IMG/VR virus record: IMGVR_UViG_3300033049_000033
Span: 1 to 64,000 of that record
DNA from: a virus
Lineage: Duplodnaviria > Heunggongvirae > Uroviricota > Caudoviricetes
DNA: 64,000 bases
Strand: one strand, 5' to 3'
Part shown: piece after piece, positions 5,279 through 58,502 of the stretch
Layout: the number at the start of each line of letters is the position of its first letter
Position numbering within the stretch: position 1 is the first letter of the stretch
Translations under genes and position numbers: made by a program
Notes under the pieces: model-generated
The model's input: only the letters and a program-made list of their open reading frames with translations
Told to the model about the DNA's origin: nothing
Databases searched by the model: none

Positions 5279-5986
5279 ATGAAACGAGATTTAACAAATG
5301 TAAAGGGATATATCTATAAGCTTACCAGCCCTAATGGTAAGACATACATAGGACAAACAGTTAATAAGAAACAGCGTAAGTATCACTATAATTCGGGAGA
5401 CTTTAAACAACAGACAAAGTTATGGAATAGTGTTAGTAAGTATAATTGGAATCCAGCCGAAACTTATGAAATAATTGAAGAATGTTTATGTGGAGTAGAT
5501 AAAGAGATATTAAATAAACGTGAAACGTATTGGATTGACCATTATAATAGTTTTAAATCTGGGTTAAATTGTAATGTTGGGGGTGATGGGAATTTAGGTA
5601 ACCAGCATAGTGCCGAATCTAAACGTAAAATGAGTGAGGCTAAAATTGGGGTTAAACACCCAGATTGGCGTAACGAGCAAAAAAGAGAATACACTAAAGG
5701 GCGTAAGCATACAGATGAGGCAAAACTTAGAATGAGTGAAGCTAAGATAGCTAACATGACAGATGATGTTAAATCTAAGATTAGTGAAGGGTTGATGGGT
5801 AACCAAAATGGTATAGGTAATTCTGGTAGCCCTAAAAAGGTAGTATGCTTAACCAACAATAAAATATATAATAGTATTAAGGAAGCGGCAAACGAATTGG
5901 GATTACACTCGTCTAATATTATTGCAACTTGTAAAGGTAAACAAAAATATACTGGTGGATATAAATTTAAGTATAATGAAGGATAA
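5279..5986 (+). CDS. GIY-YIG homing endonuclease (I-TevI/Seg-like) with NUMOD3 repeats
   Basis: GYIYKLTSPNGKTYIGQT...RKYHY GIY-YIG motif; repeated HSAESKRKMSEAKIG / HTDEAKLRMSEAKIAN (NUMOD3-like); C-terminal HTH-like KVVCLTNNKIYNSIKEAANELG. Confidence 0.85.
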   Translation: MKRDLTNVKGYIYKLTSPNGKTYIGQTVNKKQRKYHYNSGDFKQQTKLWNSVSKYNWNPAETYEIIEECLCGVDKEILNKRETYWIDHYNSFKSGLNCNVGGDGNLGNQHSAESKRKMSEAKIGVKHPDWRNEQKREYTKGRKHTDEAKLRMSEAKIANMTDDVKSKISEGLMGNQNGIGNSGSPKKVVCLTNNKIYNSIKEAANELGLHSSNIIATCKGKQKYTGGYKFKYNEG

Positions 5987-12177: not shown

Positions 12178-12969
12178 ATGACAACAATAATTACAAAGCA
12201 ATCCGAACTCTTTGTGAGTGGTTTAAGTGTAAAAAACTATTCCAAATCCACTATTGACCAATACAACTCTATTCTTAAAAAGTTTTTAAGGTTCTTTCGT
12301 AAGTCCCCTAATAGAATATCATCTGATGAAATAGTCTTGTGGTTATCAAAATTAAAATCATCATCCGCAAAAAGGCAAGCGGTTGGGGCTATTCGCAATT
12401 ATTATACTCACGTAGTTGGTCAACCGAATAAATTCAAGAGAGTACCTTATCCAAAGAAGGAACGAATCCTACCTCAAATATTTTCTCAACAAGTAGTAAT
12501 TAAAAGGATTGGTAGGGTTAAAAATTTTAAGCACAAGATGATTATTTCGGTTCTATATGGTTCGGGAATAAGGCTTTCGGAGTTACTTGATTTAAAATTA
12601 AGTGATATTGACGGGGTTAGGAATACTTTATTCATCAGACATGGAAAGGGAAGAAAGGACCGCATAGTTCCCGTGTCAGTGAAATTAATTTCAGACCTTA
12701 GAAGGTACTTCAAAGAGTATCGACCTAAAGGTTATTTATTTGAAGGGCAAACTGGTGGTAGATATTCAGGGACTTCAGTTCAGAAAATTTGTAAGAAACA
12801 CATGAAGTGCAATCCACATTTATTACGACACCAAAATTTGACACACTTAATAGAATCGGGAGTTCATTTATCTGAAGTAAGTCGTAGGGCTGGTCACTCG
12901 AAAATTTCGACTACACATGATGTTTACAGCCATATAATCACAACATTCAACCCTATAACACTATTATAA
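12178..12969 (+). CDS. tyrosine site-specific recombinase (XerC/D-integrase family)
   Basis: 263 aa; N-terminal SAM-like domain; catalytic R (GIRLSEL), HLLRHQ (HxxR), GHSKISTTHDVYSHI (Tyr nucleophile). Confidence 0.8.
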   Translation: MTTIITKQSELFVSGLSVKNYSKSTIDQYNSILKKFLRFFRKSPNRISSDEIVLWLSKLKSSSAKRQAVGAIRNYYTHVVGQPNKFKRVPYPKKERILPQIFSQQVVIKRIGRVKNFKHKMIISVLYGSGIRLSELLDLKLSDIDGVRNTLFIRHGKGRKDRIVPVSVKLISDLRRYFKEYRPKGYLFEGQTGGRYSGTSVQKICKKHMKCNPHLLRHQNLTHLIESGVHLSEVSRRAGHSKISTTHDVYSHIITTFNPITLL

Positions 12970-12974
12970 TATAT

Positions 12975-13010
12975 TTGGTTTTGTCAAAATAATTTTGTAT
13001 CTTTGTATTA
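12975..13010 (+). promoter_or_regulatory. Bacteroidetes-type promoter (TTTG-N19-TATCTTTG) for the RNA ligase N-fragment gene
   Basis: TTTG at 12975-12978, TATCTTTG at 12998-13005. Confidence 0.55.
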
Positions 13011-13042
13011 CGGAATTGAAGGTCTTCAAAAGAAATGAGAAA

Positions 13043-13843
13043 ATGGAACTAGCGATAGTTAAGTACATAAAAGAACATGGTTTAGCGAAAGCTATTAAAG
13101 ATTTTAGTCTTAAGTCTAGAATTTACCAAGATAAAATTTTACTAAAATATGACCAGCTTAACTCACCATTCGGTAATAGAGAAGTTGAAGAATGTAGAGG
13201 TCTCATTTTAGAACGAGATACTTGGAGAGTTATGTCTCTTGGTCTAACCAAGTTCTATAATTCTGCTGAGGGTCACGCTGCTAAAATTGGTTGGGATACT
13301 GCTAGAGTCTTGAAGAAAGAAGATGGTTGTTGTCATAGAGACACTATCCTTAAGACTGAGGATGGTGATATGACCATTAAAGAAATCTGTGATACTGAAT
13401 ATGCTGGTAAGGTTCTATCTTACGATATTGAATCTGGGGAAACCGTATATGACGAGATAGTAGCTCATTCGACTAAAAATAATATCGATAATTGGTATGA
13501 AATTGAGTTAGAAGATGGTACTACCATTAAATTAACTGCTAACCATAAAGTATGGTTACCGAATCTTAATTGTTACAGGGCAGTAGAAAACCTTACTGAG
13601 GACGATGAATTCTTAGTGTTAAACATTAGTGATATGGAATATATAAAATGTGTCGATAAGTTCGGTAACGAAGTAAAGGATGGTGATTTAGTGGACATAC
13701 AAAAAGCTGGTGCTTATAAGGTTTATAAAAAGAATAGCCAGCTTTACTTTAAACCTTATGGTGAAGAAGAAAGGGTGTCTGCTTATTTTAGTAATGACAT
13801 GGTAAAGTGTGATGAAGATGGATGTTGGTTAGATGTGACCTAA
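13043..13843 (+). CDS. RNA ligase 1 (T4 RnlA-like) N-terminal fragment fused to the N-part of a split intein
   Basis: N-extein ECRGLILERD...ARVLKKEDG (nucleotidyltransferase motif I) ends at 13327; CCHRDTILKTEDG (intein block A) and LTANHKVW (block B) follow; ORF stops at 13843. The upstream ATG at 12995 lies inside the promoter, so 13043 is used. Confidence 0.75.
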   Translation: MELAIVKYIKEHGLAKAIKDFSLKSRIYQDKILLKYDQLNSPFGNREVEECRGLILERDTWRVMSLGLTKFYNSAEGHAAKIGWDTARVLKKEDGCCHRDTILKTEDGDMTIKEICDTEYAGKVLSYDIESGETVYDEIVAHSTKNNIDNWYEIELEDGTTIKLTANHKVWLPNLNCYRAVENLTEDDEFLVLNISDMEYIKCVDKFGNEVKDGDLVDIQKAGAYKVYKKNSQLYFKPYGEEERVSAYFSNDMVKCDEDGCWLDVT

Positions 13844-13957
13844 TCGCATATAGATAGAATTTCACCAAGCACGTTAGAATATTTAGTTTTAAAATAAGAG
13901 GACGATTATCTAACTTTTCCAGTACTTGAGACTATTTATGGTTAAAGGTATTAGATT

Positions 13958-14899
13958 ATGGAAAAGATGATATGTGAAAAGTGTGGTGGTGAGTTTAGTA
14001 ACAAGATGTTTAAGTTGCACGTTAAGAATTCACATTCAGATGAATTTGACTCAAACGAAGATTTAGATAGATTTGTTCTTAAATATCGATTTAACTTAAC
14101 TGATGAATTTCTATCCGAACTCATCTCTGAATACAAAGAGGTGGGTTTGGTTGACCGATTAGTTAAGAAATATAACATACCACATAAAAGTATGTCAGAA
14201 ATACTTTCACTAAATGGCGTTACTTTAAATACCTTTAAGGAAGCTTGCTCACTACCACATAAACATCAAGCTTATGTGGACACATGTAAAGATAGATACG
14301 GTGTGGAGAATGTATCCCAGTTAGAATCAATTCAGAAGAAAAAAGAGGATACATTCCTTAAAAATTATGGTGTAACTAACATCTTCAAAGACCCTGAAGC
14401 GCAAAAGATGTTCGGTGAGGTAATAGAAGAAAGATATGGTAGTAAAAGATTAAGTGGTTGGCACAAATTAGGTGCTGGTGGTAAGATAGAGTGGCTTAAG
14501 CGATTAAATTCCAGTAGGGGTAAGCAATCGAAGCTAGAACTAAGGGTGGGGAATATCTTAACGGATTTAAGTGTTAATTGGGAACCACAATATGAGATTA
14601 AAGGTAAATACTACGACTTCAGAATAAAGGGGTTAAAGTTGCTTATAGAGGTGAATGGAGATTTTTGGCATGCAAATCCTGAGAAATATAGGGCTAACGA
14701 TATACTACCGTTCCCGACTAAGAATGGTGTAAAAAGTGAGATTACTGCCAAATCATTGTGGAAGAAAGATGAAAAAAAATTAAAGATTGCTAGGAATTGT
14801 GGTTTTTTTTGTGTATCTTTGTGGGAGAATGATATGAAATGTATGTCTGACGAAGAGTTAGGTATTAAATTATTAGACATAATAAACAACATTATCTAA
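13958..14899 (+). CDS. free-standing Vsr-like (PD-(D/E)xK) homing endonuclease between the split-intein halves
   Basis: 313 aa; N-terminal CEKCGG zinc-finger-like; C-terminal LLIEVNGDFWHANPEKY resembling the Vsr FxDGxFWH motif. Confidence 0.7.
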   Translation: MEKMICEKCGGEFSNKMFKLHVKNSHSDEFDSNEDLDRFVLKYRFNLTDEFLSELISEYKEVGLVDRLVKKYNIPHKSMSEILSLNGVTLNTFKEACSLPHKHQAYVDTCKDRYGVENVSQLESIQKKKEDTFLKNYGVTNIFKDPEAQKMFGEVIEERYGSKRLSGWHKLGAGGKIEWLKRLNSSRGKQSKLELRVGNILTDLSVNWEPQYEIKGKYYDFRIKGLKLLIEVNGDFWHANPEKYRANDILPFPTKNGVKSEITAKSLWKKDEKKLKIARNCGFFCVSLWENDMKCMSDEELGIKLLDIINNII

Positions 14900-14908
14900 T
14901 TTAATAAG

Positions 14909-15157
14909 ATGGAAGAAAGGTTAAACAGATTAACAGAGCAACGGGGTTCAATGAACAAACAAACAACAACCATAGAGATATTAGACTATATAGAAAATCT
15001 GTTAGAGATAGAGAAGGAAGATTTTAGACGAAAACAATTAAAAGCTGTGTCTGATGGAAATCAAGATTATCATGGTGCGATAACATGTGCAACAGCAAGG
15101 TCTGTTACTATGGGAATACTAAGTACAATAATGACTGACACTATTGATTGTAGGTAA
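14909..15157 (+). CDS. hypothetical protein
   Basis: 82 aa ORF between the endonuclease gene and the C-intein gene. Confidence 0.3.
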   Translation: MEERLNRLTEQRGSMNKQTTTIEILDYIENLLEIEKEDFRRKQLKAVSDGNQDYHGAITCATARSVTMGILSTIMTDTIDCR

Positions 15158-16127
15158 TAACGCAATTATGAAAATAATTAAAATTAAAAGAATTAGTAAG
15201 TTGGCGTCAGACTCTAAGAGGTATGATATCGAGACAAAGAATACTCATAATTTCTTTGCTGATGGTATTCTAGTGCATAACTCTTGCATCAACCTATACT
15301 ACGACTGGATTAAGGAAGAGTGGTTCGCTGCTACTACTGGTATGGCAGAGGGTGAGGGTGAAATCAATAACCGTGAGAATACCTCATTCAACGACTTGTT
15401 CTGGGAAACCGTTAGGAACAAGTATGATGAGGATAAGTTCAAGGATAACTTGGAGATTGGTTTCACTTACGTTTTTGAATTGACCACTCCGTATAATATA
15501 GTTGTTGCACCTCATACCGAATCTAGGGTAACCTTATTAACCATCAGGAGTCTGCGTAACTTAAAAGAGTTAGCCTCATCAATATGTTTTGCGGAAGCCT
15601 ATGGTCTAGGGGTACCAATTGTCGAGGAATATGACCTTAATAGCGGTAATGTTGAATTTCTTTTAAGGACATTCGAGAATATGGACGCTTTTTCGGAGGG
15701 TTACGTAGTTGTAGATGATAAATTCAATCGTATTAAGATAAAGAATCCAAAATACGTAGCGATTCACCATTTAAAATCGAAGACATCTTCATATGCAATT
15801 ATGGAGATAATAAAATCTAATGAAGTAGATGAGTTTATCGCCACATTCCCTGAAAGAGAAGTAGAAATCAAAGCACTTAGGGTTAGTTATAATAACCTAA
15901 TTGTGGAATTAGAAGCTTTGTGGGGCATACTTGAAGTTCATAAACCAAAGAATATTACACCAGCAGAACGTAAGAAATTCGCAACCAAAGTTTTCGAGGT
16001 GGTTGATGTCAACGATAAAAAGACGTTCACAGGGTTATATTTCGGTCTTATGGACGGAAAAGTAACTTCAATTGTGGATTATATCCGAAACATGGACAAT
16101 AAAAGACTTTTCGCTTTATTAACTTAA
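15144..16127 (+). CDS. C-part of split intein fused to RNA ligase 1 C-terminal fragment
   Basis: MKIIKIKRISKLASDSKRYDIETKNTHNFFADGILVHN (Npu DnaE IntC-like) ends at 15281; C-extein starts SCINLYYD so the joined junction reads KEDG-S (T4 Rnl1 motif I is KEDGSL); EGYVVVDDKFNRIKIKNPKYV matches Rnl1. Likely start is the Met at 15168. Confidence 0.75.
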   Translation: MIVGNNAIMKIIKIKRISKLASDSKRYDIETKNTHNFFADGILVHNSCINLYYDWIKEEWFAATTGMAEGEGEINNRENTSFNDLFWETVRNKYDEDKFKDNLEIGFTYVFELTTPYNIVVAPHTESRVTLLTIRSLRNLKELASSICFAEAYGLGVPIVEEYDLNSGNVEFLLRTFENMDAFSEGYVVVDDKFNRIKIKNPKYVAIHHLKSKTSSYAIMEIIKSNEVDEFIATFPEREVEIKALRVSYNNLIVELEALWGILEVHKPKNITPAERKKFATKVFEVVDVNDKKTFTGLYFGLMDGKVTSIVDYIRNMDNKRLFALLT

Positions 16128-16816
16128 AGCAATAGGTCTTTCTTATCTACCCTATTAATTTTACTACACAATGGTTGGAGATTGGCGTAATGGTTTAGCG
16201 CTATCACATCATCTTCACTGTTAGCACTAGATATCGGTACAATATGGTCAATATCCCAACCATATCCGTATTCTCCATTATATTTACCATAATTATCCCA
16301 ATTCATCCAATCCTCCAATTGTGATTCAATATGTAATTTGAATTCATCGAATGAGCACCCAAGTATCTTATAAGTCTTAGATTTTTTAGTGTAGCCGAAC
16401 CTACGAATAGCATGACATATCAAACCTCTTGCAGCAACCGACATTCTAAACACTGGGTCAGTTTTAACTTTCTTTCTCACATAATTATTAATGTGTTCCC
16501 TGTTATTAGTGTCCCACACCTTTTTGTCTTCCCTAATTTTAGATTTGTTATTTTCCCTATACTCTTTCTTTTTCGCTAAAATGCGTTTACGATTTGTGAT
16601 ATGGTACTTTTTTACCCGTTTTTCTATATGCTCTTTATTTTCAATCTCATAGACTCTACGTTTCTCCAATAAAGAATCACGATTCTCATTATAAAGTCTT
16701 CTACGTTCGGCATTAATATTGTCCTTGTTTTGTTCGTATAGTTCTTTACGTTCACGATTTATTCGCTCTTTATTGGCTTCGTACCATTCTTTTTTCCTAA
16801 CCTGTTCCTTAGTCAT
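16124..16816 (-). CDS. HNH homing endonuclease (paralog 2)
   Basis: 230 aa; seven 15-aa basic repeats (KEWYEANKERINRER, KELYEQNKDNINAER ...); C-terminal GCSFDEFKLHIESQLEDWMNWDNYG...WDIDHIVPISSA...NLQPLC. Confidence 0.8.
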   Translation of the reverse strand: MTKEQVRKKEWYEANKERINRERKELYEQNKDNINAERRRLYNENRDSLLEKRRVYEIENKEHIEKRVKKYHITNRKRILAKKKEYRENNKSKIREDKKVWDTNNREHINNYVRKKVKTDPVFRMSVAARGLICHAIRRFGYTKKSKTYKILGCSFDEFKLHIESQLEDWMNWDNYGKYNGEYGYGWDIDHIVPISSANSEDDVIALNHYANLQPLCSKINRVDKKDLLL

Positions 16817-22216: not shown

Positions 22217-22507
22217 ATGAAACATATACTAATAACTGAGAATACTAAGTGGACAACATATGAAGGTGTTAGTCGACCATTTAAAGAGTGTGAAGATACA
22301 CACTTAGTTAATATTGTCAACCATGTTAACATGGTTGACAATCCAAGTAAGGTTATGATAAGTAAAGTCTGCATGAAAATTCTTATAGATAGAGGCATTA
22401 GTCTGGATATGTTAGATTATGCTCAGATACCACATAAAGATTCCAACGGAGATTGGGCTGTTTGGAGTTATGAAACTTCCCAACCTAAAGTATTACAGTC
22501 GAATTAA
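22217..22507 (+). CDS. hypothetical protein
   Basis: 96 aa ORF. Confidence 0.4.
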   Translation: MKHILITENTKWTTYEGVSRPFKECEDTHLVNIVNHVNMVDNPSKVMISKVCMKILIDRGISLDMLDYAQIPHKDSNGDWAVWSYETSQPKVLQSN

Positions 22508-28473: not shown

Positions 28474-28497
28474 GGTCGTTAGGAGTATATACGAACA

Positions 28498-28532
28498 AAA
28501 CGCCATAGGATTTCCTATGGCGTTTTTTTTAC
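28498..28532 (+). terminator. rho-independent terminator
   Basis: AAACGCCATAGGA-loop-TCCTATGGCGTTT then TTTTTT. Confidence 0.8.
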
Positions 28533-40582: not shown

Positions 40583-41072
40583 TAACATAAGAACAGTAAC
40601 GTACCTATCTGCCTACACAACTATTAATACAAGAACATCTCTAACACTACCAACAGAAGATGCTCTCAAAATTAAACATATAAAGATATTGAATGGTGGA
40701 ACATCTTTACTCCTCCTCAACGAATTGACGGCACATATAGATACGCCAGATACATTGGATATTGTAGAGGCCAAACATCTTAGCAAACTATCAATAAACT
40801 TGCCAATAACAATAATAGAAGCTAATATTAATAACAACGTAACAATACCCAACATAGAAGAATTGATACCACACGTTCATAAACTACGAAGACAACAAGA
40901 AATGCAAGGGCTTTGGTCAACAGTGGGAATAAGATGGTACCCAGATATGGGAAGAGAGAGCTTTTGCTGGCACTGTTCTATAGATACAGTAATACCAGAA
41001 GGCTATTCACATATATGTGTTATAGGGACAACTGATAATGTAACGCCATTATTTACGGTACATGCCGACTAA
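40575..41072 (+). CDS. LRR-like paralog family member 13 with CxxC...HIC tail
   Basis: VTIPNIEELIP; CWHCSIDTVIPEGYSHIC. Confidence 0.5.
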   Translation: MVDNIRTVTYLSAYTTINTRTSLTLPTEDALKIKHIKILNGGTSLLLLNELTAHIDTPDTLDIVEAKHLSKLSINLPITIIEANINNNVTIPNIEELIPHVHKLRRQQEMQGLWSTVGIRWYPDMGRESFCWHCSIDTVIPEGYSHICVIGTTDNVTPLFTVHAD

Positions 41073-41109
41073 CCCAACAGTATAAAAGTATAAAACTGAC
41101 CAAACAATA

Positions 41110-41583
41110 ATGGAGATAAAACCAAAAGCCGAACCGATAATAGCCAAGACCGATAAAGTCTGCTATAAGATACTATATAAGATTAACCCACTTGAGCGTG
41201 ATGCCGAAAGTCTACTGAAATGCCATGAGGACGAACTAATATATAAAACCAATATCATGATGCCTAACATAGAGCTTGTCTCCGTAAGAGAAAAGTTTTC
41301 TAATGGGTTTAAATGGTTTGTAGATATGGGATACCACTCTAGAACTAAAGTTAACTCCGAAGAAAGAGTGGTTAGACTAGACTGCAATAATTGTTGGTAT
41401 AAATGCATAATACCCAAAGGTGCTAAATACTATGAAGGGATGGATGAGAATAATAGAGAGTCTTACTCATCTGATAGTATCATGGTAATAGAGCTAATTG
41501 AAACTGAAAGCTTTTATGAGAAGATTAGGATGAAAAAGGAATATAGTAAGATGCAGAAGAATGATAGAAAGTCTGGAAGATAA
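41110..41583 (+). CDS. possible family member with CNNC..KC cluster
   Basis: MMPNIELVSV; CNNCWYKCIIP. Confidence 0.35.
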   Translation: MEIKPKAEPIIAKTDKVCYKILYKINPLERDAESLLKCHEDELIYKTNIMMPNIELVSVREKFSNGFKWFVDMGYHSRTKVNSEERVVRLDCNNCWYKCIIPKGAKYYEGMDENNRESYSSDSIMVIELIETESFYEKIRMKKEYSKMQKNDRKSGR

Positions 41584-41594
41584 TCCCCACTATA

Positions 41595-42059
41595 ATGTTT
41601 GAAGATATGATAAATCACACAGGTAGGTATGGTTGGGTCAGACATACGTTAGATATAAGTGAACAACAACTAAAGGCCGTTGGAGAATTAGAGATACTCG
41701 ATGGTGATTTAGTGGTACTGAAAAACTTCGACAACACTAAAGTAATACTACCACACATTACCAATATGGGGCTGGACGCAAAGGCATCTAATATATCAGA
41801 GATAGAGTTTACCCCTACGGAAGGATTTATACTTCTTGACATAGGGACAAACATAGTCAATATAGAAGAGCTGAAAAATAAATCATGCGTTTTTATCGAG
41901 TACTCCTCTAAGTCTGACGTAAGAATCTGTTCATGCTGCTCAAAGCTCCTTAATGAGGGGACGGTACATATCTGCATGCAGAAGAAATTCGACTCCGTAG
42001 AGGAAGCATTTGTAAACAAGGACATGTCTTTCTTCACTTGTAAGCCACGTTCTCTTTAA
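41595..42059 (+). CDS. LRR-like paralog family member 14 with CxxC...HIC tail
   Basis: TNIVNIEEL; CSCCSKLLNEGTVHICMQKKF. Confidence 0.5.
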   Translation: MFEDMINHTGRYGWVRHTLDISEQQLKAVGELEILDGDLVVLKNFDNTKVILPHITNMGLDAKASNISEIEFTPTEGFILLDIGTNIVNIEELKNKSCVFIEYSSKSDVRICSCCSKLLNEGTVHICMQKKFDSVEEAFVNKDMSFFTCKPRSL

Positions 42060-42268
42060 AAGGGTGATAGGTATCCGTTAAGAACTTTAATTAGCACCTG
42101 TGCCCTATTTCAGGGTAGTGGTAAAAGGTGTTGTTTTGTGGGTAAAAGTGGTAAACGGTGGTATAAGTAGTTGAGATATAGCTTATTATAGTGTTTATTC
42201 TTTTTAGAAATATCACTCTGTAAATAAAATTAGTCACTTTTTATACTTTGTTATTGTATAACATTGTA

Positions 42269-42286
42269 TGTACACATTTGTGTACA
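42269..42286. repeat. 18-bp palindrome TGTACACA-TT-TGTGTACA (copy 1)
   Basis: perfect inverted repeat; also at 42746-42763, 43765-43782 and 56180-56197, degenerate at 43167-43183. Confidence 0.8.
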
Positions 42287-42300
42287 AGGGTGGTATTAGA

Positions 42301-42336
42301 TTTGCATATGTTGATTTTTATTTGTACCTTTGTGTA
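42301..42336 (+). promoter_or_regulatory. promoter TTTGCATATGTTGATTTTTATTTGTACCTTTG (copy 1 of a duplicated promoter)
   Basis: TTTG 42301-42304; TACCTTTG 42325-42332; near-identical copy at 43875-43910. Confidence 0.6.
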
Positions 42337-42744
42337 ATGAAAAAATCAATAATAATAGTGTTCGTAGTGTTATGTATCGTAGTGTCATCTTCAGTTGATA
42401 GTCACTCAGTTGTCAATGATAGGTGGGAGGCACCAAGTAGTGCCGATACACTTAAAAATCCTTATACTAATAGTGCTGAAACATTTATCGTTGGTAAAAA
42501 ATTATTTAAACAAATGTGCGCCATATGTCATGGTAATAGAGGTAGAGGTAATGGAATCGGTGGAATCGGTCTACCGACCAAGCCGACAAATCTCACATCT
42601 AAGGTTATTCAAGGGCAAACCGATGGTGCCATTTTTTGGAAAATATCTGAGGGGAGGATTCCAATTTCACCAATGGCACCATATAAAAGCATATTAAAAG
42701 AAGACCAAAGGTGGGGGTTGGTTAATTATATTAGGACATTATAG
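42337..42744 (+). CDS. c-type cytochrome (class I, c551/c552-like) with signal peptide
   Basis: MKKSIIIVFVVLCIVVSSSVDS signal peptide; CAICH heme-binding CXXCH; distal Met in ISPMAPYK; start at 42337 because the upstream MYTFVY is translation of the palindrome. Confidence 0.8.
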   Translation: MKKSIIIVFVVLCIVVSSSVDSHSVVNDRWEAPSSADTLKNPYTNSAETFIVGKKLFKQMCAICHGNRGRGNGIGGIGLPTKPTNLTSKVIQGQTDGAIFWKISEGRIPISPMAPYKSILKEDQRWGLVNYIRTL

Positions 42745-42777
42745 ATGTACACATTTGTGTACATAGGGATAATTATA

Positions 42778-43164
42778 ATGTCACCTTCGGTGTTTCCTAT
42801 ACTCTTGTGGTGTGGGCTTATATTCATGGTATTGTTTATAGTACAAGCTATGAATATTCAGGTATATGGCAGAATGAGAGGAAATCAATACCTCATTGAT
42901 AATTTGTCTGAACTTAGTGCGGAAATCCGAATGGAGGGTAATAAGAATTGTTTGAGTTATCACTCTGAGCATATAATGTTCGTTAATGAGACTAAGACTT
43001 TGTTTGGGGATTACGTTATATTTGGACAAGCACCCAGTGAACAATATAGTGGCATTGTCTGGCGTGGTAGTACATTGCATTATTTTTTGAAGCGCAAGTT
43101 TGTGGAGCAACGAATACCCACTAAATCCTATGGATATGACAGTAGCATAGTAGAGCCTATGTAG
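42778..43164 (+). CDS. hypothetical membrane-anchored protein
   Basis: 128 aa from MSPSVFPILLWCGLIFMVLFIV; follows palindrome copy 2. Confidence 0.45.
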   Translation: MSPSVFPILLWCGLIFMVLFIVQAMNIQVYGRMRGNQYLIDNLSELSAEIRMEGNKNCLSYHSEHIMFVNETKTLFGDYVIFGQAPSEQYSGIVWRGSTLHYFLKRKFVEQRIPTKSYGYDSSIVEPM

Positions 43165-43180
43165 TATGTACACATTTGTG

Positions 43181-43783
43181 TCATAGCATGTTATTTTGTT
43201 TAATATATCGGTTAGTATAACTACATAATGGTTGTAGGTTAGTGTAATGATTTAGCTTAATAACATCAGAGACATTTTTAGCTGTGGCCAATGGTATTAT
43301 ATGGTCAACATCCCATGCTACGTTAGGCTTATCGGGGGTACCGTTCCAGTTACCTTTATTATTCCAATTCATCCATTCTTCGAATTGTCTTTCTAAATGT
43401 AAGAGTAGCTCTTCGTAAGTACATCCCAATATTAACTCAGTTTTACTTGGTTTAGGTGTACCTATCTGATTAAATGATGCCCAGATGCAGGTTTTAATAT
43501 TTTTTTTTAGTTTATACAATGGGTCTTGAATTATTTTGTTACGTTGATATTCCCTCATATGTTCTTTATTATTAGCCCTCCATGTTCTTCCGTAGTCTAA
43601 TTGTTGTTGTTTATTTTTATCGTACCATTCTTTTTTCTGTTTTGCTATTTTATCAGCATTTCTTTTTAGGTATGCTTTTCTTACTTCTTTATTGTATGCC
43701 ATATTATTTGCGTTTCTTAATAAATATGAGATAATAAGTAGAAGTACACATTTATCATCTTTTATGTACACAAATGTGTACAA
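43181..43783 (-). CDS. HNH homing endonuclease (paralog 3)
   Basis: WDVDHIIPLATA...NLQPLCSYTNRYIK; GCTYEELLLHLERQFEEWMNWNNKG; true start probably MAYNKE at 43702 because the first 27 codons read through the palindrome. Confidence 0.75.
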   Translation of the reverse strand: MYTFVYIKDDKCVLLLIISYLLRNANNMAYNKEVRKAYLKRNADKIAKQKKEWYDKNKQQQLDYGRTWRANNKEHMREYQRNKIIQDPLYKLKKNIKTCIWASFNQIGTPKPSKTELILGCTYEELLLHLERQFEEWMNWNNKGNWNGTPDKPNVAWDVDHIIPLATAKNVSDVIKLNHYTNLQPLCSYTNRYIKQNNML

Positions 43784-43874
43784 AGGTTAATATTCGTGCT
43801 TGATTGTTAATCATACAACTAAGGTAGGTATTATATATTAGACTACCAAACTTTTCTTCTACTATTATATGAAA

Positions 43875-43910
43875 TGAAGTTTTATTTGTGTATGTCGATT
43901 TTTATTTGTA
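43875..43910 (+). promoter_or_regulatory. promoter copy 2 (TTTGTGTATGTCGATTTTTATTTGTACCTTTG)
   Basis: direct repeat of the 42301-42336 promoter; bounds the cytochrome-c/HNH cassette. Confidence 0.55.
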
Positions 43911-43989
43911 CCTTTGTTGGCATGAATGATAACTCAGTAATGGCAATTATAGCTATATGTTTTTTTGGATTATGGCCATATCAATAAGT

Positions 43990-44400
43990 ACACTTCCAAA
44001 AATGGAGGTTGCGAAGGAAAAGACTAAACAATTAGAGTATCAGTGGAAGATTGATTCGGTTGCATCATTAGGTGCAACCCCGTTAGATATATAGGTTTAC
44101 TGTGTGAAAAAGGTAACGGTATAATAGGACGCGGAAAATCGTTATCTGGTATCCTCATATATTATCATGAGTCTTCGGGCAAAAGTGAGGGTATCTGACC
44201 GCAGTTTAATGGATTTGACTGGCGCTCCTGAAGGGAATGCTGGTCTTTTCTATCTGGTAGTTTTAACAACGTGCAGGCGATTTTAGGTCAACGTCCCTCT
44301 GATTTCTCCACCATGCTATCTCAATTGGCGCCTGTCTTAATGACACTTCAAATATAAGGACAATAAATGAGACCACCAAATAAAAATAAAAGTTTTTTAT
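43990..44400 (+). other. about 400-bp ORF-free, hairpin-rich region (candidate structured RNA or leader)
   Basis: no ORF of 60 aa or more on either strand; GGTTGCATCATTAGGTGCAACC hairpin, CTTCGG tetraloop hairpin, higher local GC than the flanks. Confidence 0.3.
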
Positions 44401-44412
44401 TCAGGGTTTTAT

Positions 44413-44622
44413 TTGTATATTTGTAGCATGAAAAAATTCACAACACATTATTTACCTGAAAATGTTCATCTTACTCATATGCGAGAAGATGAACAAGAAT
44501 TCACTAAGGGTAGAACCAGTACATATATGTGGGGATATACTGATGGTAAACGAGATAGAAACTATGACGGGTATTACAAACATGTTGATATAATGAATAT
44601 ACAATATAGATTATTCACTTGA
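44413..44622 (+). CDS. hypothetical protein
   Basis: 69 aa; family-B promoter upstream. Confidence 0.4.
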   Translation: MYICSMKKFTTHYLPENVHLTHMREDEQEFTKGRTSTYMWGYTDGKRDRNYDGYYKHVDIMNIQYRLFT

Positions 44623-44660
44623 AATTTGGTAGTGTCGGATTAATTGTTTATCATTGTACT

Positions 44661-44867
44661 ATGGGAAAGAATTATGAGTTAGTAAAGTTTGTTATCCACA
44701 TGGATGAATTGGGGGATAGAAGTTCTATTGTCGCAGTATCTAAGGATAGGAGCAGGTTGGAAGATTATTGTAATTATACTTTCAATGTTCTAACTGGTAA
44801 AGGTTCTGGTGCTGAAATATATCGGGATTATTATTTAATCGTTGAAACTGATTTACAGATAGTATGA
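44661..44867 (+). CDS. hypothetical protein
   Basis: about 68 aa from MGKNYELV, directly after a family-B promoter. Confidence 0.4.
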   Translation: MGKNYELVKFVIHMDELGDRSSIVAVSKDRSRLEDYCNYTFNVLTGKGSGAEIYRDYYLIVETDLQIV

Positions 44868-45034
44868 AACAGATTATGACATTTTCTAAGGGTTTCTTGG
44901 CCTTAGCGATAATTGGCTCTTTGTTGGGGTTTGGGGTTATACTATTAGGTGAGTATTTCGTTGCGAGGGCGATATTATTTATATTGATACTGGCGTTATG
45001 TTATAGTGCTGGAAAACTAATTGAAACATTTTAA
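44864..45034 (+). CDS. small membrane protein (56 aa, 2 TM)
   Basis: MKQIMTFSKGFLALAIIGSLLGFGVILLGEYFVARAILFILILALCYSAG; ATGA overlap. Confidence 0.3.
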   Translation: MKQIMTFSKGFLALAIIGSLLGFGVILLGEYFVARAILFILILALCYSAGKLIETF

Positions 45035-45036
45035 GT

Positions 45037-45321
45037 ATGAAAACAATACATGAGATATTAGTACTGGTTAATAACGTATTCCATCAAGGGAGTCAAATGG
45101 GGTTATGTTCTGCTGCAATGAGTGTAAAGTATGCAAACGATATAACTATGGATGAATTCTTTGTATTCAAGAAATATCTTAAACATTCGCTTATAGGTCA
45201 TAAGCAATTCTATGATTGGCAAGAAAGAAAGACGATGGATAGTACCAAATTTGCGTGGAAACCCAACACTACTAAGCCAAGAATTGCTTGGTTGGATAAA
45301 CATTTAGAACTTACAAAATGA
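45037..45321 (+). CDS. hypothetical protein
   Basis: 94 aa ORF. Confidence 0.4.
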   Translation: MKTIHEILVLVNNVFHQGSQMGLCSAAMSVKYANDITMDEFFVFKKYLKHSLIGHKQFYDWQERKTMDSTKFAWKPNTTKPRIAWLDKHLELTK

Positions 45322-45626
45322 AAGACAAGGATTTTATTGGGATGGAGCTTAACGGCTTTATATGTAGTGTACAACATGAGACAGGTTCATTGGAGTGGCA
45401 TAACCCCATTAATGGGGGGCTTTCGATATATGCCACTCCAAATTACAGTGAAGATAATGTTGTACCATTTGACTACTCAATTGATGGGGATTATTACCAT
45501 GTATTTGATTTAGAGTTCCCAGAAGGATTGGATGAGGGAACTAAGAAGGACTGGTATATGAATATGTTGCTTGGGGTAATATTAATTGCAACGGTTCACT
45601 ATCAGAGTTTGGAATTGTCAAATTAA
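45318..45626 (+). CDS. hypothetical protein
   Basis: 102 aa ORF. Confidence 0.4.
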   Translation: MKDKDFIGMELNGFICSVQHETGSLEWHNPINGGLSIYATPNYSEDNVVPFDYSIDGDYYHVFDLEFPEGLDEGTKKDWYMNMLLGVILIATVHYQSLELSN

Positions 45627-47931: not shown

Positions 47932-48516
47932 ATGGAAACAATCGTATCAGTAGAAGTAAACGGAAAGACAATCGAACTGTATCAATCGGAGGGTGATTCT
48001 AGGGATTGGGATAACGCTTGTCAAATGATATTTGCAGGGGGACATAAACATTATGGAGACAAGCATGATGTGGAGTTTGGTGAGTATAATAGTATGCAAC
48101 ACTTCATCGAGCAAGGTGAGGTAGACGTAAGAAAGCAATTGAAGGATGTTGTTGTTTGCGTACCTATCTATTTGTATTCACATTCAGGAGTGACCATATC
48201 AACTTCACCATTTAGTTGTCCGTGGGATAGTGGATGTTGTGGGTTTGCCGTGGTAACTAAAGCCGACATTCGTAAAATGCAAGGTATTAAACGAGTTACC
48301 AAGAAACACATTGACGATGCGGCACGTTACCTTGAAGGTGAAGTTGAGACATTAGCCCAAGAAATAAGTGGTGAAGTATATGGTTTCATCATTGAAGATG
48401 AGGATGGGGAACATGAGGATAGCTGTGGAGGGTTTTACGGTTCAGACTTGGATAAGAATGGTATGAGTGATTACTTAGACCAAGAACAAATTGATGAATT
48501 AACTAACGCATGGTAA
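47932..48516 (+). CDS. hypothetical protein
   Basis: 194 aa ORF. Confidence 0.45.
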   Translation: METIVSVEVNGKTIELYQSEGDSRDWDNACQMIFAGGHKHYGDKHDVEFGEYNSMQHFIEQGEVDVRKQLKDVVVCVPIYLYSHSGVTISTSPFSCPWDSGCCGFAVVTKADIRKMQGIKRVTKKHIDDAARYLEGEVETLAQEISGEVYGFIIEDEDGEHEDSCGGFYGSDLDKNGMSDYLDQEQIDELTNAW

Positions 48517-53272: not shown

Positions 53273-53536
53273 ATGAATACAGAACTACAATCATTATTTG
53301 ATAATCCACTATTCAGTCAATGGACAGGTAGCGGCAAGGTTGTAACCATTTATGATGATGAAGGTACGTTTATCGTACTGGTAAATCAGGGTAAAAAGAA
53401 TGGTGAGCACACTTATGACATCTTTAGATTTTTTAGCTTCGGCAATTTAGAGGTTTGGAATGTGAGCTGTGATTATGAAGGATGTGATACTAAAGAAGCA
53501 ATGGATAATATGACCAAATATTACACAGGACAATAA
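53273..53536 (+). CDS. hypothetical protein
   Basis: 87 aa ORF. Confidence 0.4.
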   Translation: MNTELQSLFDNPLFSQWTGSGKVVTIYDDEGTFIVLVNQGKKNGEHTYDIFRFFSFGNLEVWNVSCDYEGCDTKEAMDNMTKYYTGQ

Positions 53537-53727
53537 TGGAAGAACTTTACATTCGAGCTATCAAGGGAGCGATTCTTAAGCTCAAGAACCCAAAGACATC
53601 TGAAGAAGACCGCACTGAAGCAATGAGGGCAGCAGGTAGGAATTTAGGTAAACTCAGGTTAATAAATGAGGGGTTTTATCTTGACTTATTAGAGGAATAT
53701 AAAACGGTAATACCTTATGACGGGTGA
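53536..53727 (+). CDS. hypothetical protein
   Basis: 63 aa ORF. Confidence 0.35.
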   Translation: MEELYIRAIKGAILKLKNPKTSEEDRTEAMRAAGRNLGKLRLINEGFYLDLLEEYKTVIPYDG

Positions 53728-53730: not shown

Positions 53731-54414
53731 TTAAAATTCGTCCCTCTTTATATATCTATTGTTATAACTACATAGAGGTTGTTGATTTTTGAAATGGCAT
53801 AGTTCTAATAATTCGTTTTCCGTATTCGCTGTTGATAATGGAATTATATGGTCTAAATCCCAACCATGATTAAGTTCTCCATTATATTTACCATAGTTAT
53901 CCCAATCCATCCAATCCTCCCATTGTGACTCAATATGTAGTTTGAATTCTTCGTAAGTACATCCCAGTATTTTATATGTCGTAGAAGTCTTAGAGTATCC
54001 CTTATCTTTGAGTAATATAGAAATCCTACTTCTTAAATTAATTGTCAGTTTATATAGTGGGTCTTTTGCCACCCTATTAGTACGATAATTTCTATTGTAT
54101 TCTCTAATTTTTTCTCTATTGGAGTCATAGTACTTTTTCTTTGCTAATTTTGTTTGTTCTGGTCGTTCTCTGTTATAAGCTACTAACCTATCTTTATTCT
54201 TTTTTGCGTATTGCTTAGTCGTTTCTTTAATTGTATCTTTATTAATAATACGATATTCTTTGATATAAGCCTTTATATGTTCCTTATTAGCTTCACGCCA
54301 TTTTCTTCTTCTTATTAATCGCGCTTCTTTGGTTTGTTTCATTATGTTGTTTTTATATAAATATGGGGGAACTTGTAAAAATGTTAAGGAATGCATGAAG
54401 ACCTCCAGAAACAA
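53731..54414 (-). CDS. HNH homing endonuclease (paralog 4)
   Basis: basic repeats; GCTYEEFKLHIESQWEDWMDWDNYG...WDLDHIIPLSTA...NQQPLC. Confidence 0.8.
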   Translation of the reverse strand: MFLEVFMHSLTFLQVPPYLYKNNIMKQTKEARLIRRRKWREANKEHIKAYIKEYRIINKDTIKETTKQYAKKNKDRLVAYNRERPEQTKLAKKKYYDSNREKIREYNRNYRTNRVAKDPLYKLTINLRSRISILLKDKGYSKTSTTYKILGCTYEEFKLHIESQWEDWMDWDNYGKYNGELNHGWDLDHIIPLSTANTENELLELCHFKNQQPLCSYNNRYIKRDEF

Positions 54415-55711: not shown

Positions 55712-56176
55712 ATGGGAACAAGAAGCCTAACAAAATTTATTCAGACTTACAAAGATGGGAAGTCTGGAAAAATAAAGAACCAAAAGATTGCCAGTGTTTA
55801 CCGACAGTTCGATGGTTATCCATCGGGACATGGTTTGGAGTTGGCAGAATTCTTAACCAGTGGTACATTAGTTAATGGTATTGGAGGTGGACACAACAAA
55901 GTGTTCAATGGTGTTGGCTGTATGGCTGCCCAGATGGTTGCAGAATTCAAAGATGGAGCTGGTGGTATCTACTTACGTAACCCTTCAACTATTGCGAACT
56001 GGGAAGATTACGAGTATCTAGTATATGGAGACTTCGATACCCAAGAGATTAGACTTAAAGTAAGAAGTATTGGAGGGTATCACGATAACGTCAAAGACAA
56101 GTGGGTTTCCAAAGGTAAGACTATCTTTGATGGTACACCTGCCGAATTCCTTAATAGTAAACTGGTAGAAGAGTAA
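55712..56176 (+). CDS. hypothetical protein
   Basis: 154 aa; Gly-rich. Confidence 0.45.
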   Translation: MGTRSLTKFIQTYKDGKSGKIKNQKIASVYRQFDGYPSGHGLELAEFLTSGTLVNGIGGGHNKVFNGVGCMAAQMVAEFKDGAGGIYLRNPSTIANWEDYEYLVYGDFDTQEIRLKVRSIGGYHDNVKDKWVSKGKTIFDGTPAEFLNSKLVEE

Positions 56177-56204
56177 TTATGTACACAAATGTGTACATAA
56201 GAAC

Positions 56205-56710
56205 TTAAAAGTCAATTTGGTCACATTTTATATACCTATTGACGTATGAGCATAGTGGTTGAAGATTAGTATAATGATTCAGTCTGATTACATCTTCTTC
56301 TGATGTTGCTGACGAAATTGGTATTATATGGTCAATATCCCAACCATAGTTCAGTTCACCATTATATAAGCCCCTATTATCCCAGTTCATCCATGATTCA
56401 AAGTTAGATTCCAAATGTAGCTTAAATTCTTCAATTGTGCAACCTAAAATCTCATATGTAGTAGATTTTTTTGTATAATTATACATTCTAAATATATTAC
56501 CAATCATTCTCTTAACTTTTCTTTTTAGTAAATAAATTGGGTCGTTGAGACTCTTGGTTTTATTCCAAGAAGACCTACTTTTACTAATCTTATTCTATCT
56601 GACATAACAATATCATTAGTTAAACAATATTTTTTATATTGTTTTCTCATTATTTTTTCCATTAAGAATGTGATTCGAACTGGTTCTGCCTTAAATTTCC
56701 GTATATTCAT
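56205..56710 (-). pseudogene. decayed HNH homing endonuclease (paralog 5, frameshifted)
   Basis: 100-aa C-terminal ORF (56205-56507) retains GCTIEEFKLHLESNFESWMNWDNRG...WDIDHIIPISSA...NLQPLC; upstream DPIYLLKRKVKR continues in frame without a start; the repeat-like segment MRKQYKKYC (56525-56710) is in another frame; A/T homopolymer runs. Confidence 0.6.
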
Positions 56711-56796: not shown

Positions 56797-57516
56797 ATGA
56801 AAAAGACAAAGACTCCAACTGGTTATGTGATATATAAAGGGCCATCACAGCTTAACGGTAAAGAAATAGTCGCTATTGTTACCATGAAATCGACTAATAT
56901 AAAAACGGGTAACATGGCTCAATTGTGGATATTATTAGAAGGTCTGAACCCTGTTGAGGCAAGCCAAACCAAAGCTGATGATGCTATTTGTGGTTCGTGT
57001 CAATTTAGGCAATCTTTAGGTGGTGCTTGTTATGTGAATATCGGACAAGCACCAGGTATTATCTTTAGAGCCTATAATAAGGGTAACTATCCATTTGCTC
57101 ACGATTATAGTGTTTTTGAAGGTAAAAGTATGCGATTTGGTGCTTATGGCGACCCTGCGGCAATTCCTTTGGATATTCTAACTAAGTTGAAAGCGGTTGT
57201 TACTAATAACACTTCATACACACACCAATGGAAAAATAACGATAATAAAGCATTGAAAGATGTATCAATGGCAAGTGTTGACAACCTATTAGAAGCTGAA
57301 CAAGCCAAAGAAAGAGGTTATAGGTGGTTCAGGGTAACTAATGACATTGAAACGCTTAGAAGCGATGAAATAATTTGCCCTAACTATACAAGTAACGTAC
57401 AATGCAAAGATTGTAAGTTATGTAGTGGCAATGGTGCGAAGGGTGCAAAGTCTATTGTAATACCAAGTCACGGCTCATGGAAAGGTAGGTTTACGGAAGT
57501 AACAAGTCACGCTTAA
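56797..57516 (+). CDS. hypothetical protein
   Basis: about 239 aa from MKKTKTPTGY after a TATCTTTG promoter; several Cys (CGSCQ, CKDCKLCSG). Confidence 0.45.
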   Translation: MKKTKTPTGYVIYKGPSQLNGKEIVAIVTMKSTNIKTGNMAQLWILLEGLNPVEASQTKADDAICGSCQFRQSLGGACYVNIGQAPGIIFRAYNKGNYPFAHDYSVFEGKSMRFGAYGDPAAIPLDILTKLKAVVTNNTSYTHQWKNNDNKALKDVSMASVDNLLEAEQAKERGYRWFRVTNDIETLRSDEIICPNYTSNVQCKDCKLCSGNGAKGAKSIVIPSHGSWKGRFTEVTSHA

Positions 57517-58174
57517 CGTATCTATTAACATAACTACATAACGGTTGGAGATTGTTGAACTTGTTAAGGTTCAATACTTCTTCTTCTGTTATTGCGGAGC
57601 TACTAGGTATTATGTGGTCAATATCCCATGTCTTATCAGGCTCTACGATACCATCTTTAGGGTTACCATAATTATCCCAATTCATCCAATCCTCCCATTG
57701 TGATTCGATATGTGATTTGAATTCATCGAATGAACACCCCAATATTTCGTGGGCTTTAGATTTTTTAGTATAACCGCCTTCAACTATTTTAAGGCGTATT
57801 AGGCTCCTGACGTTTTTACTTAACCTATATAGTGGGTCGTGTTTCCTTTCATGGTATCGCTTTAAGTTGTATTGTAACTTAGCGGTTTTATTCTCTACAT
57901 ATCGATTGCGGTCTTTTCCCCTCATCCAATCTCGATTATCTTCTCTATATTGCTTATGGTATTCAGTCCTAACGTCTATATTATCTTGATAATACTTAGC
58001 ATTCTGTTGACTTATTCTATCCTTCATACATAATTTACAATGGTATTTGTATCCGTCTGGCGTATTTTTATTCTTATAGAATTCGTTAAGTGGTTTTTCT
58101 ATTTCACATTTACTACATATCTTCATGGTTAGTCTTTTATATAAATAGTGATGAATGTATGAAAGTCTTCCCAC
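57491..58174 (-). CDS. HNH homing endonuclease (paralog 6) with N-terminal zinc ribbon
   Basis: CSKCEIEKP...YHCKLCMKDR; GCSFDEFKSHIESQWEDWMNWDNYG...WDIDHIIPSSSA...NLQPLC. Confidence 0.8.
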   Translation of the reverse strand: MGRLSYIHHYLYKRLTMKICSKCEIEKPLNEFYKNKNTPDGYKYHCKLCMKDRISQQNAKYYQDNIDVRTEYHKQYREDNRDWMRGKDRNRYVENKTAKLQYNLKRYHERKHDPLYRLSKNVRSLIRLKIVEGGYTKKSKAHEILGCSFDEFKSHIESQWEDWMNWDNYGNPKDGIVEPDKTWDIDHIIPSSSAITEEEVLNLNKFNNLQPLCSYVNRYVKRDLLLP

Positions 58175-58232: not shown

Positions 58233-58502
58233 ATGAGTAAAGAAAGAAGTATATTCCATTTACATCGATACACACCTATTGTATCGATGTATTGGACTTT
58301 TAGTACCCGTAAAATCATTTATGAGTGTCAATGTGGTAAGCGTGAGGTTAGACAAGTCTATCGTAATTTTGGAGATGAATTTCCGATAGATACAGCCATA
58401 ATGTTAAGTAATACCGACTTTAACGCAATATTAAATGGTGAAGAGTATGAGTATCTTAGCGAGCATATGGTAATTTTGAAAAAATATTTGATTAAGGACT
58501 AA
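58233..58502 (+). CDS. hypothetical protein
   Basis: 89 aa ORF after a hybrid promoter. Confidence 0.4.
   Translation: MSKERSIFHLHRYTPIVSMYWTFSTRKIIYECQCGKREVRQVYRNFGDEFPIDTAIMLSNTDFNAILNGEEYEYLSEHMVILKKYLIKD

Follow-up and report, generated by a model that had tools for sequence, protein, structure and literature searches.

In T4-like phages, sigma-70 early promoters and stem-loops occur together in hyperplastic regions as promoter-early stem-loop (PeSL) cassettes (PMC2839356; PMC4122927). Promoter and terminator activity have both been demonstrated for PeSLs, together with indels bounded by the motif and with minicircles (Arbiol et al., 2010, PMC2839356; Comeau et al., 2014, PMC4122927). 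For large phages other than the T4-like ones, the ways in which variable regions acquire and lose genes are poorly documented. Here we describe a locus in a 64,000-nucleotide stretch of DNA from an uncultured phage (Caudoviricetes; IMG/VR record IMGVR_UViG_3300033049_000033, positions 1 to 64,000; the whole stretch is called the window below) for which PeSL cassettes are the closest described system. The locus contains several copies of an 18-bp palindrome, TGTACACATTTGTGTACA, which we call PAL, as well as a gene for a c-type cytochrome, a predicted open reading frame (ORF2) and an antisense gene for an HNH-type endonuclease. Comparison with related metagenome contigs revealed a scaffold of palindromes, promoters and ORF2 common to three lineages, a slot within it whose cargo varies, and empty and filled sites for the HNH gene, and PAL and its placement proved to be conserved across the phage lineage. 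We consider it probable that the locus consists of this conserved scaffold plus two independent insertions, with PAL serving as a boundary or exchange junction in the manner of a PeSL.

PAL has an 8-2-8 geometry and gave nine strand-matches in the window, against 0.2 expected from a dinucleotide-shuffled version of the same sequence. It is the sole recurring hairpin among the 23 perfect hairpins of the window, and its RNA hairpins fold at -8 to -16 kcal/mol. A sequence-only reading of this DNA had reported exact copies at 42269, 42746 and 43765 and a degenerate copy at 43167, all of which we found again; it had overlooked a fifth copy at 56180, which separates the stop codon of one gene (55712-56176) from the 3' end of a convergent, truncated HNH paralog (56205-56507). 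The degenerate copy (43167-43184) has three mismatches, and the stop codon of the HNH gene overlaps its degenerate arm. The window also holds long perfect palindromes that occur once each (1781-1806, 5252-5277, 22313-22342, 28497-28526 and 58261-58291), the longest being the 30-bp palindrome at 22313; those at 1781 and 58261 are each directly upstream of another HNH paralog.

We compared the locus with its nearest relatives, which were recognised through ORF2. Among 1.84 billion representative proteins, only two clusters of ORF2 homologs were found (P0091, 46% identity; P0092, 40% identity), and the corresponding genes sit at the same position on the short metagenome contigs L042/L043 and L059. 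The order common to the three lineages is iteron block, PAL, sigma-A promoter, variable slot (slot X), PAL, ORF2, PAL, spacer and sigma-A promoter, and in the window this scaffold is located where host-type promoters become dense. The first palindrome, PAL#1, has orthologous copies at 279-296 of L042 and 298-315 of L059; the second, PAL#2, at 650-667 of L042 (with one mismatch) and 690-707 of L059. The left promoter is likewise kept in L042 and L059. By contrast, the cytochrome gene and the HNH gene are both absent from the locus in L042/L043 and L059. In slot X, the relatives carry small membrane ORFs, one of 84 aa in L059 and one of 66 aa in L042/L043, where another short ORF-like stretch comes after it; sequence similarity between the window and its relatives reaches the start codon (GTAATG) and breaks off there. 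Since both promoters and all three PALs are orthologous in relatives that lack the cytochrome and HNH genes, they predate this cargo, and ORF2 is a resident gene because it is common to L042/L043 and L059. The comparison therefore indicates that the cytochrome gene and the HNH gene represent two independent events. A further difference was observed between L042 and L043, which are 98% identical over 1,036 nt and diverge at approximately the right promoter; this appears to be another exchange bounded by the same motif. Downstream of that promoter lies a coding gene in both L059 (105 aa) and L043, where it is cut by the contig end. A likeness between ORF2 and this gene of L059 was not accepted (E 0.2-0.7).

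The HNH gene entered at the third palindrome of the scaffold. In L042 and L059, ORF2 is followed by a single PAL and then directly by the spacer and right promoter. At the corresponding filled site of the window, the HNH gene stands between a 15-nt remnant of PAL and a full copy of it, and removal of the 598 bp from 43182 to 43779 restores collinearity with both relatives from the end of ORF2 to the right promoter. The insertion holds an HNH-type coding sequence (43181-43702, minus strand, 173 aa), a promoter-like ATATTTATTA motif (43718-43728) and the duplicated part of PAL (43765-43779). The assignment to the HNH class, which the sequence-only reading had made, is probable. The motif WD-x-DH-x-x-P ... 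N-x-QPLCS-x-x-NR, which contains the catalytic D-H...N...N residues, is invariant in ten sequences of the family, and PHROG 1035, annotated as endonuclease VII, matches the protein at E = 3e-6 and one of its paralogs at E = 3e-19. On the other side, the Pfam HNH score of 17.0 bits is below the cut-off of 21.4 bits; of ten family members, seven gave weak matches to Pfam HNH, the best at E = 0.002. Precomputed Pfam domains are absent throughout this family of more than 1,700 members. The quality of the structure model (predicted local distance difference test score, pLDDT, of 56, with values under 50 in the C-terminal domain) did not suffice for a fold search, and a profile search against PDB sequences gave no match.

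Six antisense HNH-like paralogs are present in the window (996-1775, 16124-16816, 43181-43702, 53731-54414, 56205-56507 and 57491-58174), and HNH genes abut three of the five window PAL copies. The two HNH copies next to PAL are more similar to each other (57% identity) than to any other paralog. The second of them (56205-56710) is apparently frameshifted or truncated, its catalytic C-terminal 100 aa and its N-terminal part being in different frames. The closest homologs outside the window, in L060 (69% identity), L062 (55%) and L064 (52%), have PAL-like sequence at both ends of the gene: the 5' copy is 60-80 nt upstream of the ATG, ahead of a ATATTTAT(T/A)A motif, and the 3' copy is over or just past the stop codon. 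The junction in L060 is a stop-overlapping TGACACAAATGTGTAC, as in the window. PAL-like sequences also occur at HNH gene ends in L004/L066, L080 and L096. In L080, the upstream PAL has a GGGGTTA flank and the 3' half-PAL has its reverse complement, TAACCC, a pattern that would be seen if the HNH gene had divided a longer palindrome in two. In a shared-flank test across 80 HNH loci, 29 loci shared flanks compared with 17 in the control; flank sharing was thus barely above the control level, and the link to PAL is therefore limited to an HNH subclade. The proposal that the palindrome is tied to the HNH gene is accordingly borne out for that one subclade, by the empty and filled PAL site and by the PAL-like flanks. 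A second polymorphism was found at another site, where both the window (53731-54414) and L049 (2536-2820) have an HNH gene after the homolog of gene 53509-53724, and L048 has only a 72-nt gap (5286-5358). As a separate observation, a motif of the type ATATTTAT(A/T)(T/A) is located 13-16 nt ahead of the ATG of HNH genes and of gene 3413, at 43718-43728 (minus strand), upstream of 54342 and 58126 (minus strand) and at 3389-3400 (plus strand). It is also found ahead of gene 3413 homologs in about ten relatives, and may mark a class of promoters specific to the phage, for which the sigma factor encoded at 2283-3182 would be a candidate.

Free-standing phage homing endonuclease genes of the HNH or His-Me finger type, such as the mob genes of T4, offer a further comparison. 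The HNH gene described here resembles them in being a small, intergenic and often antisense gene with its own promoter and several paralogs per genome, and in varying in presence among relatives with a clean empty site, as seen for the 598-bp insert and for L049 versus L048. It differs from them in that it is inserted in a dispersed, putatively regulatory palindrome, rather than at a unique site in or near a conserved gene, in that the insertion has left a partial duplicate of the palindrome, and in that it belongs to a large family lacking Pfam assignments, with an HNH match below threshold.

PAL is not confined to this locus. The exact 18-mer was present in 32 IMG/VR stretches, several of which are on the same 120-135-kb contigs, and many PAL-bearing IMG/VR contigs encode homologs (35-50% identity) of window proteins, among them the sigma factor, gene 3413, DUF932 and the HNH family. 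A 20-mer consisting of TA plus PAL matched only three times across 596 Gb of bacterial and archaeal genomes, each time in a contig of 29-103 kb from a metagenome-assembled genome (MAG; L044, L045 and L046). Because L044 (PLXT01000052.1), whose MAG carries the label Methanobacterium, encodes a homolog of the window protein 47932-48516, it is probably a phage contig that was binned wrongly. On the evidence of these sequences, PAL is an element common to this phage lineage that has been kept in distantly related phages of about 120 kb. The 18-mer is close to lineage-specific, and hence could serve as a marker for these phages and for mis-binned contigs in metagenomes. PAL is almost always intergenic, typically 0-18 nt past a stop codon and 50-75 nt ahead of the next start codon. 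In L007, L026 and L055, it forms the apex of a longer, GC-clamped stem that is followed by a T-run, which together have the form of a canonical terminator. The central TT/AA of PAL varies among orthologous sites, and this switch would most simply be explained by conversion between oppositely oriented PAL copies.

We next consider the cargo of slot X. The sequence-only reading had identified it as a class I cytochrome c, and this identification is fully supported. The protein scored 42.3 bits with PF00034 (cut-off 21.3) and 37.8 bits with PF13442 (cut-off 27). In an alignment with 18 homologs (19 sequences), all 27 invariant columns are kept, including C61, C64, H65 and M113, the first three of which belong to the haem motif C61-A-I-C64-H65. 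The AlphaFold model has the class I fold, with a mean pLDDT of 85 and values above 90 over the mature domain, and its best PDB match was cytochrome c552, with a target-normalised TM-score of 0.80 and a root-mean-square deviation of 1.5 A. The alternative complex III monohaem subunit ActE also matched by fold, and these matches were seen at the sequence level too. The likeness to cytochrome c552 (PDB 9vr0, 7o9u) and ActE (6lod_E, 6f0k_E, 6btm_E) extends to fold, CXXCH motif, Met ligand, size and putative N-terminal export signal; the phage protein differs in being phage-encoded, in having a 3-residue insertion (IPI) ahead of the PMA ligand loop, and in lacking the C-terminal KK of its homologs. 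Its N-terminus, MKKSIIIVFVVLCIVVSSSV, is hydrophobic and resembles a Sec signal; in the homologs, the hydrophobic N-termini are variable ahead of W30. The true start is the ATG at 42337. As the earlier reading had recognised, the N-terminal sequence MYTFVY is simply the palindrome in translation, and the public call for the cytochrome gene, P0001 (158 aa), bears that artefactual extension.

A cytochrome c is a rare kind of auxiliary gene for a phage. The usual phage electron-carrier genes are those for cyanophage plastocyanin and ferredoxin, which the cytochrome gene resembles as a host-derived redox gene placed behind an early promoter in a lytic-type phage. Another precedent for redox genes in phages comes from a preprint that lists bc1-complex and Ccm genes for a Nitrosospira phage (10.64898/2026.05.02.722434). 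We found no counterpart of a stand-alone, soluble, monohaem cytochrome c from a Bacteroidota phage in 50,697 phage records, by tblastn, or in IMG/VR, in agreement with the claim that such a gene is unusual. An identical protein is on record in a 125,635-bp contig. The nearest other homologs are 53-58% identical and, where named, are mostly from Bacteroidota (Fluviicola, Flavobacteriales, Cyclobacterium and Pontibacter); the cytochrome thus appears to be host-derived and of Bacteroidota origin. In six bacterial contigs (L034, L036, L037, L039, L040 and L041), the homologous gene heads an uncharacterised cluster, being followed by a gene for a larger protein (380-430 aa in five contigs and 243 aa in L036; no Pfam or NCBIfam match) and by a gene for a protein of about 80-93 aa; one of the latter was scanned and gave weak cytochrome c matches. 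The cluster is outside alternative complex III or oxidase operons, and is often near genes for RND efflux, HMA, metal-efflux, Usp, SHOCT, DUF5676 and CRP/FNR proteins. These neighbourhoods give no support to the suggestion that the cytochrome is a donor to a cbb3 oxidase or nitrite reductase. Of the three genes of the cluster, the phage has just the first. Its cytochrome points to this uncharacterised Bacteroidota redox cluster as the likely host partner. We considered ORF2 as a possible counterpart of the 243-399-aa proteins encoded after the bacterial cytochromes; it is unrelated to them, and this candidate was ruled out. The GC content of the cytochrome gene is ordinary for the window, and therefore nothing marks its acquisition as recent.

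The promoters of the scaffold belong to a family, TTTG-N16-21-TAnnTTTG, with 21 members on the plus strand of the window and one on the minus strand; 13 are beyond 42 kb, and plus-strand members include those at 3803, 22181, 42301, 43885 and 62826. This is the Bacteroidetes sigma-A consensus, in which the -7 box spans positions -12 to -5 (PMC9723704). The -7 box of the left promoter ends at 42332, giving a predicted start site at 42337, which is the A of the cytochrome ATG, and hence the cytochrome message would be leaderless. Several other promoters of the family have an ATG 4-5 nt past the -7 box, predicting further leaderless early mRNAs. The promoter repeat reported by the sequence-only reading is real, with an exact 20-mer at 42313-42332 and 43897-43916 and 31 of 34 positions identical between 42300-42333 and 43884-43917; its second coordinate was about 10 nt off. 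The view of this pair as a unique duplication did not hold. Aligned over 38 positions, the left and right promoters share 32, which places them second of 210 pairs, and the promoters at 49897 and 59834, 10 kb apart, are more similar (35/38); we therefore regard them as members of a family rather than as the products of a one-off duplication. A scan for sigma-70 promoters was uninformative (47 sites against 41 expected).

The likeness of this locus to PeSL cassettes has several parts. In both systems, early promoters for the host sigma factor and stem-loops form near-identical repeats in a variable, ORFan-rich region of a large phage of lytic type; the motifs occupy the gap from one gene's stop codon to the following start codon; and differences in gene content between relatives start or end at the motifs, as seen here for slot X, for the HNH insertion and for the divergence of L042 and L043. 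The suggestion that palindromes and promoters mark the boundaries of variable gene content is upheld by these motif-bounded differences. There are also clear differences. The promoters here are of the TTTG / TAnnTTTG type and the host lineage is Bacteroidota, whereas PeSLs use sigma-70 promoters; the stem-loop here is one fixed, AT-rich 18-bp palindrome, whereas PeSLs have variable stems with G/C tracts; and promoter and stem-loop are separable here, with about 21 promoters and 5 PALs. Moreover, the exact PAL sequence is kept across very divergent phages, and PAL also serves as an insertion site for HNH genes. Terminator activity and minicircles have been demonstrated for PeSLs; for PAL, a terminator role is a putative one. 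The locus is a clean example, in an uncultured group of Bacteroidota phages, of the same scaffold in three lineages with different cargo in the slot and with an empty or filled nuclease site, and it suggests that PeSL-like boundary repeats are a more general solution for gene exchange. We would best file it as a PeSL-like boundary-repeat system of uncultured Bacteroidota phages, notable for the rare cytochrome c that it carries and for the HNH subclade associated with its palindrome; the mechanism is one that we infer.

According to this mechanism, PAL would form a hairpin at the transcript boundary and act as a terminator, an attenuator or a 3'-end stabiliser. The dispersed identical PALs, together with the promoter family, would supply short homologies at which genes are swapped, as in PeSL cassettes. 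One HNH subclade would land in PAL, either by PAL-to-PAL recombination or by nuclease cutting of PAL. The cytochrome would be made early from the host-type promoter, exported by Sec, matured by the haem-attachment system of the host, and may then feed into a periplasmic redox partner of the host.

Several observations weigh against the view of PAL as a PeSL-like boundary element. A terminator scan listed none of the five window PAL copies, and a T-run is downstream of none of them, so that a terminator of the classical intrinsic type is not established in the window. Only PAL#1 of the five copies is directly upstream of one of the roughly 21 promoters; PAL#3 is about 100 nt from the right promoter, and the remaining promoters have no adjoining PAL. 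Promoter and stem-loop consequently do not form an obligate composite as they do in PeSLs. PAL variants alter one arm only, with zero compensatory pairs, which argues that the sequence is conserved beyond mere pairing; this pattern would fit protein recognition at least as well as an RNA hairpin. As regards the HNH gene, four of the six paralogs in the window have no adjoining PAL, and neither do 76 of the 80 homolog loci in IMG/VR. Finally, only three lineages have the scaffold, and from them alone the gain of the cytochrome gene cannot be polarised against its loss.

An alternative that we regard as possible, though not probable, is that PAL is primarily the target of the adjacent HNH-type nuclease, which would cut at or beside the palindrome, possibly extruded as a cruciform in the manner of an endonuclease VII substrate, and whose gene would be copied in during repair; the dispersed PALs would then be landing pads, with any regulatory role secondary. 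Such a target would account for the single PAL of the empty site in L042 and L059 and the partial and full copies of the filled site, for the same junction in L060, the split flanks in L080 and the PAL-like gene ends in L004/L066, L062, L064 and L096, and for the close relationship of the two PAL-associated HNH copies. The endonuclease VII annotation of the best PHROG match fits as well, as does the presence of the HNH gene in L049 and its absence in L048 at another site. However, four intact PALs together with an intact HNH gene in one genome would lead to self-cleavage, unless the DNA had some protection or the enzyme made nicks only. In relatives, HNH genes are missing from the vicinity of most PALs, nearly all homolog loci are without PAL, flank sharing exceeds the control by little, and free-standing endonuclease genes enter intergenic DNA anyway, which is where PAL resides. 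PAL could instead be the operator of a dimeric DNA-binding regulator, of phage or host, that controls neighbouring promoters, with its position at gene boundaries a mere consequence; we judge this unlikely but deserving of serious attention. Consistent with an operator, the 18-mer is identical across phages whose proteins have diverged to 35-50% identity, its variants are uncompensated, the 8-2-8 geometry sets the half-site centres 10 bp apart, and no window copy has a T-run. PAL#1 ends 14 nt ahead of the -33 element, a PAL in L048 abuts the -7 box, and PAL is 50-65 nt upstream of the gene 3413 homolog in about ten relatives. By contrast, no DNA-binding domain was found among conserved neighbours such as gene 3413, the distance to the promoter ranges from overlapping to about 100 nt, and the copies at 42746, 43167 and 56180 have no promoter nearby. 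The constant feature is instead closeness to a stop codon, and some copies have GC clamps and T-runs. The central TT is sense-oriented in about 16 of 19 copies between tandem genes (manual reading), which a symmetric dimer would not require.

Both of these alternatives are partly compatible with a PeSL-like boundary element. The model proposed by the sequence-only reading, in which the cytochrome gene, ORF2 and the HNH gene are one mobile cassette that entered recently by promoter duplication, is contradicted by the two relatives. The genes are indeed flanked by the most similar promoter pair of the vicinity (31/34) and by PAL copies with similar flanks (28/35). Nevertheless, L042/L043 and L059 have both promoters, all three PALs and ORF2 but neither the cytochrome gene nor the HNH gene; the comparison of related loci that had been suggested as a check thus resolves the supposed cassette into a resident gene, a variable slot and a separate HNH insertion. 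A more similar promoter pair exists 10 kb apart, and neither the unremarkable composition nor the distance to the nearest bacterial cytochromes marks the acquisition as a recent one. We therefore consider a single cassette highly improbable. We favour the scaffold with two insertions and a PeSL-like PAL, and note an extended form of it that is distinctly unlikely as a whole: an endonuclease-VII-like HNH subclade would home into a regulatory PAL, perhaps via a cruciform, PAL and the promoters would constitute an exchange system, and a captured, early, leaderless cytochrome would tap into host respiration or redox stress. The features of the locus are listed in Table 1.

Table 1. Positions of the palindromes, promoters, genes and non-coding regions at the cytochrome locus and of the distant fifth palindrome, in window coordinates.
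Feature	Position	Strand	Description
Non-coding block left of slot X	42036..42266		Iterons and AT-rich stretch
PAL#1	42269..42286		Exact 18 bp; precedes the left promoter's -33 element by 14 nt
Left promoter	42301..42332	+	Sigma-A type; TTTG at -33, TACCTTTG as -7 box
Slot X cargo, cytochrome c	42337..42744	+	Monoheme, class I, 135 aa; CAICH, Met113 as distal ligand
PAL#2	42746..42763		Exact; runs from 1 nt past the cytochrome stop codon to 14 nt short of the ORF2 ATG
ORF2	42778..43164	+	128 aa, N-terminal hydrophobic segment; resident gene, predicted ORF
PAL#3, left remnant	43167..43181		First 15 nt of PAL, interrupted by the HNH insertion
HNH-type insertion	43182..43779	-	598 bp, absent from L042 and L059
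PAL#3, complete copy	43765..43782		Exact on the opposite strand; located 5' of the HNH gene
Right spacer and right promoter	43783..43916 (promoter 43885-43916)	+	Homologous to L042 1076-1218 and L059 1119-1245
Region downstream of right promoter	43922..44390	+	21-aa hydrophobic ORF (43922-43987), then about 400 nt
Fifth PAL	56180..56197		Exact; 11-bp arms across 56177-56200

The non-coding block to the left of slot X contains 4-5 GTGG(T/G)AAA repeats at 42117-42165, with a spacing of about 10 nt, and becomes AT-rich beyond them. Its identity to L042 and L059 is 75-78%, compared with 50-55% for the DNA of ORF2, and the order of a GCACGTTTG-like box, a T-run, iterons and further direct repeats recurs beside PAL in distant relatives (L005, L008, L010, L020, L021, L022 and L028). 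The block could be an origin or a control element of the early region. No GC-skew flip was seen at the iterons, and a locus-specific 20-mer from the block had zero matches in metagenome contigs. The gene upstream of the locus (41595-42059) had no relatives in IMG/VR, and its sole match among 5.8 billion proteins was itself; as an ORFan, it is therefore unusable as a synteny anchor. At the other end of the locus, the region 43988-44390 has no ORF of more than 45 aa and no credible Rfam match. An Rfam scan had no match at the gathering thresholds, and lenient thresholds gave only a sub-threshold match to an L20 leader. Folding of 44090-44385 was not unusually stable (z-score +0.37).

The window as a whole has 36% GC and is transcribed almost entirely from the plus strand. 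Its phage nature is supported by genes for an ATP-dependent DNA ligase, RNA-ligase-like proteins, a sigma factor and homing endonucleases. No close cultured relative was found, the best matches to the sigma factor in phage records being below 38% identity, and a megablast search of 41000-45500 against phage records gave zero matches. No anomaly of GC content or skew was found at the locus. Elsewhere in this otherwise lytic-looking large phage genome, a tyrosine-integrase-like ORF is present at 12178-12969 (phrog_1, E = 6e-36), with homologs in L010 and L027. An RNA-ligase-like gene is apparently split within 12995-16127: the ORF at 12995-13843 covers positions 37-108 of the phrog_562 profile and the ORF at 15144-16127 covers positions 107-366, and between these two halves is a homing-endonuclease-like ORF (13958-14899).

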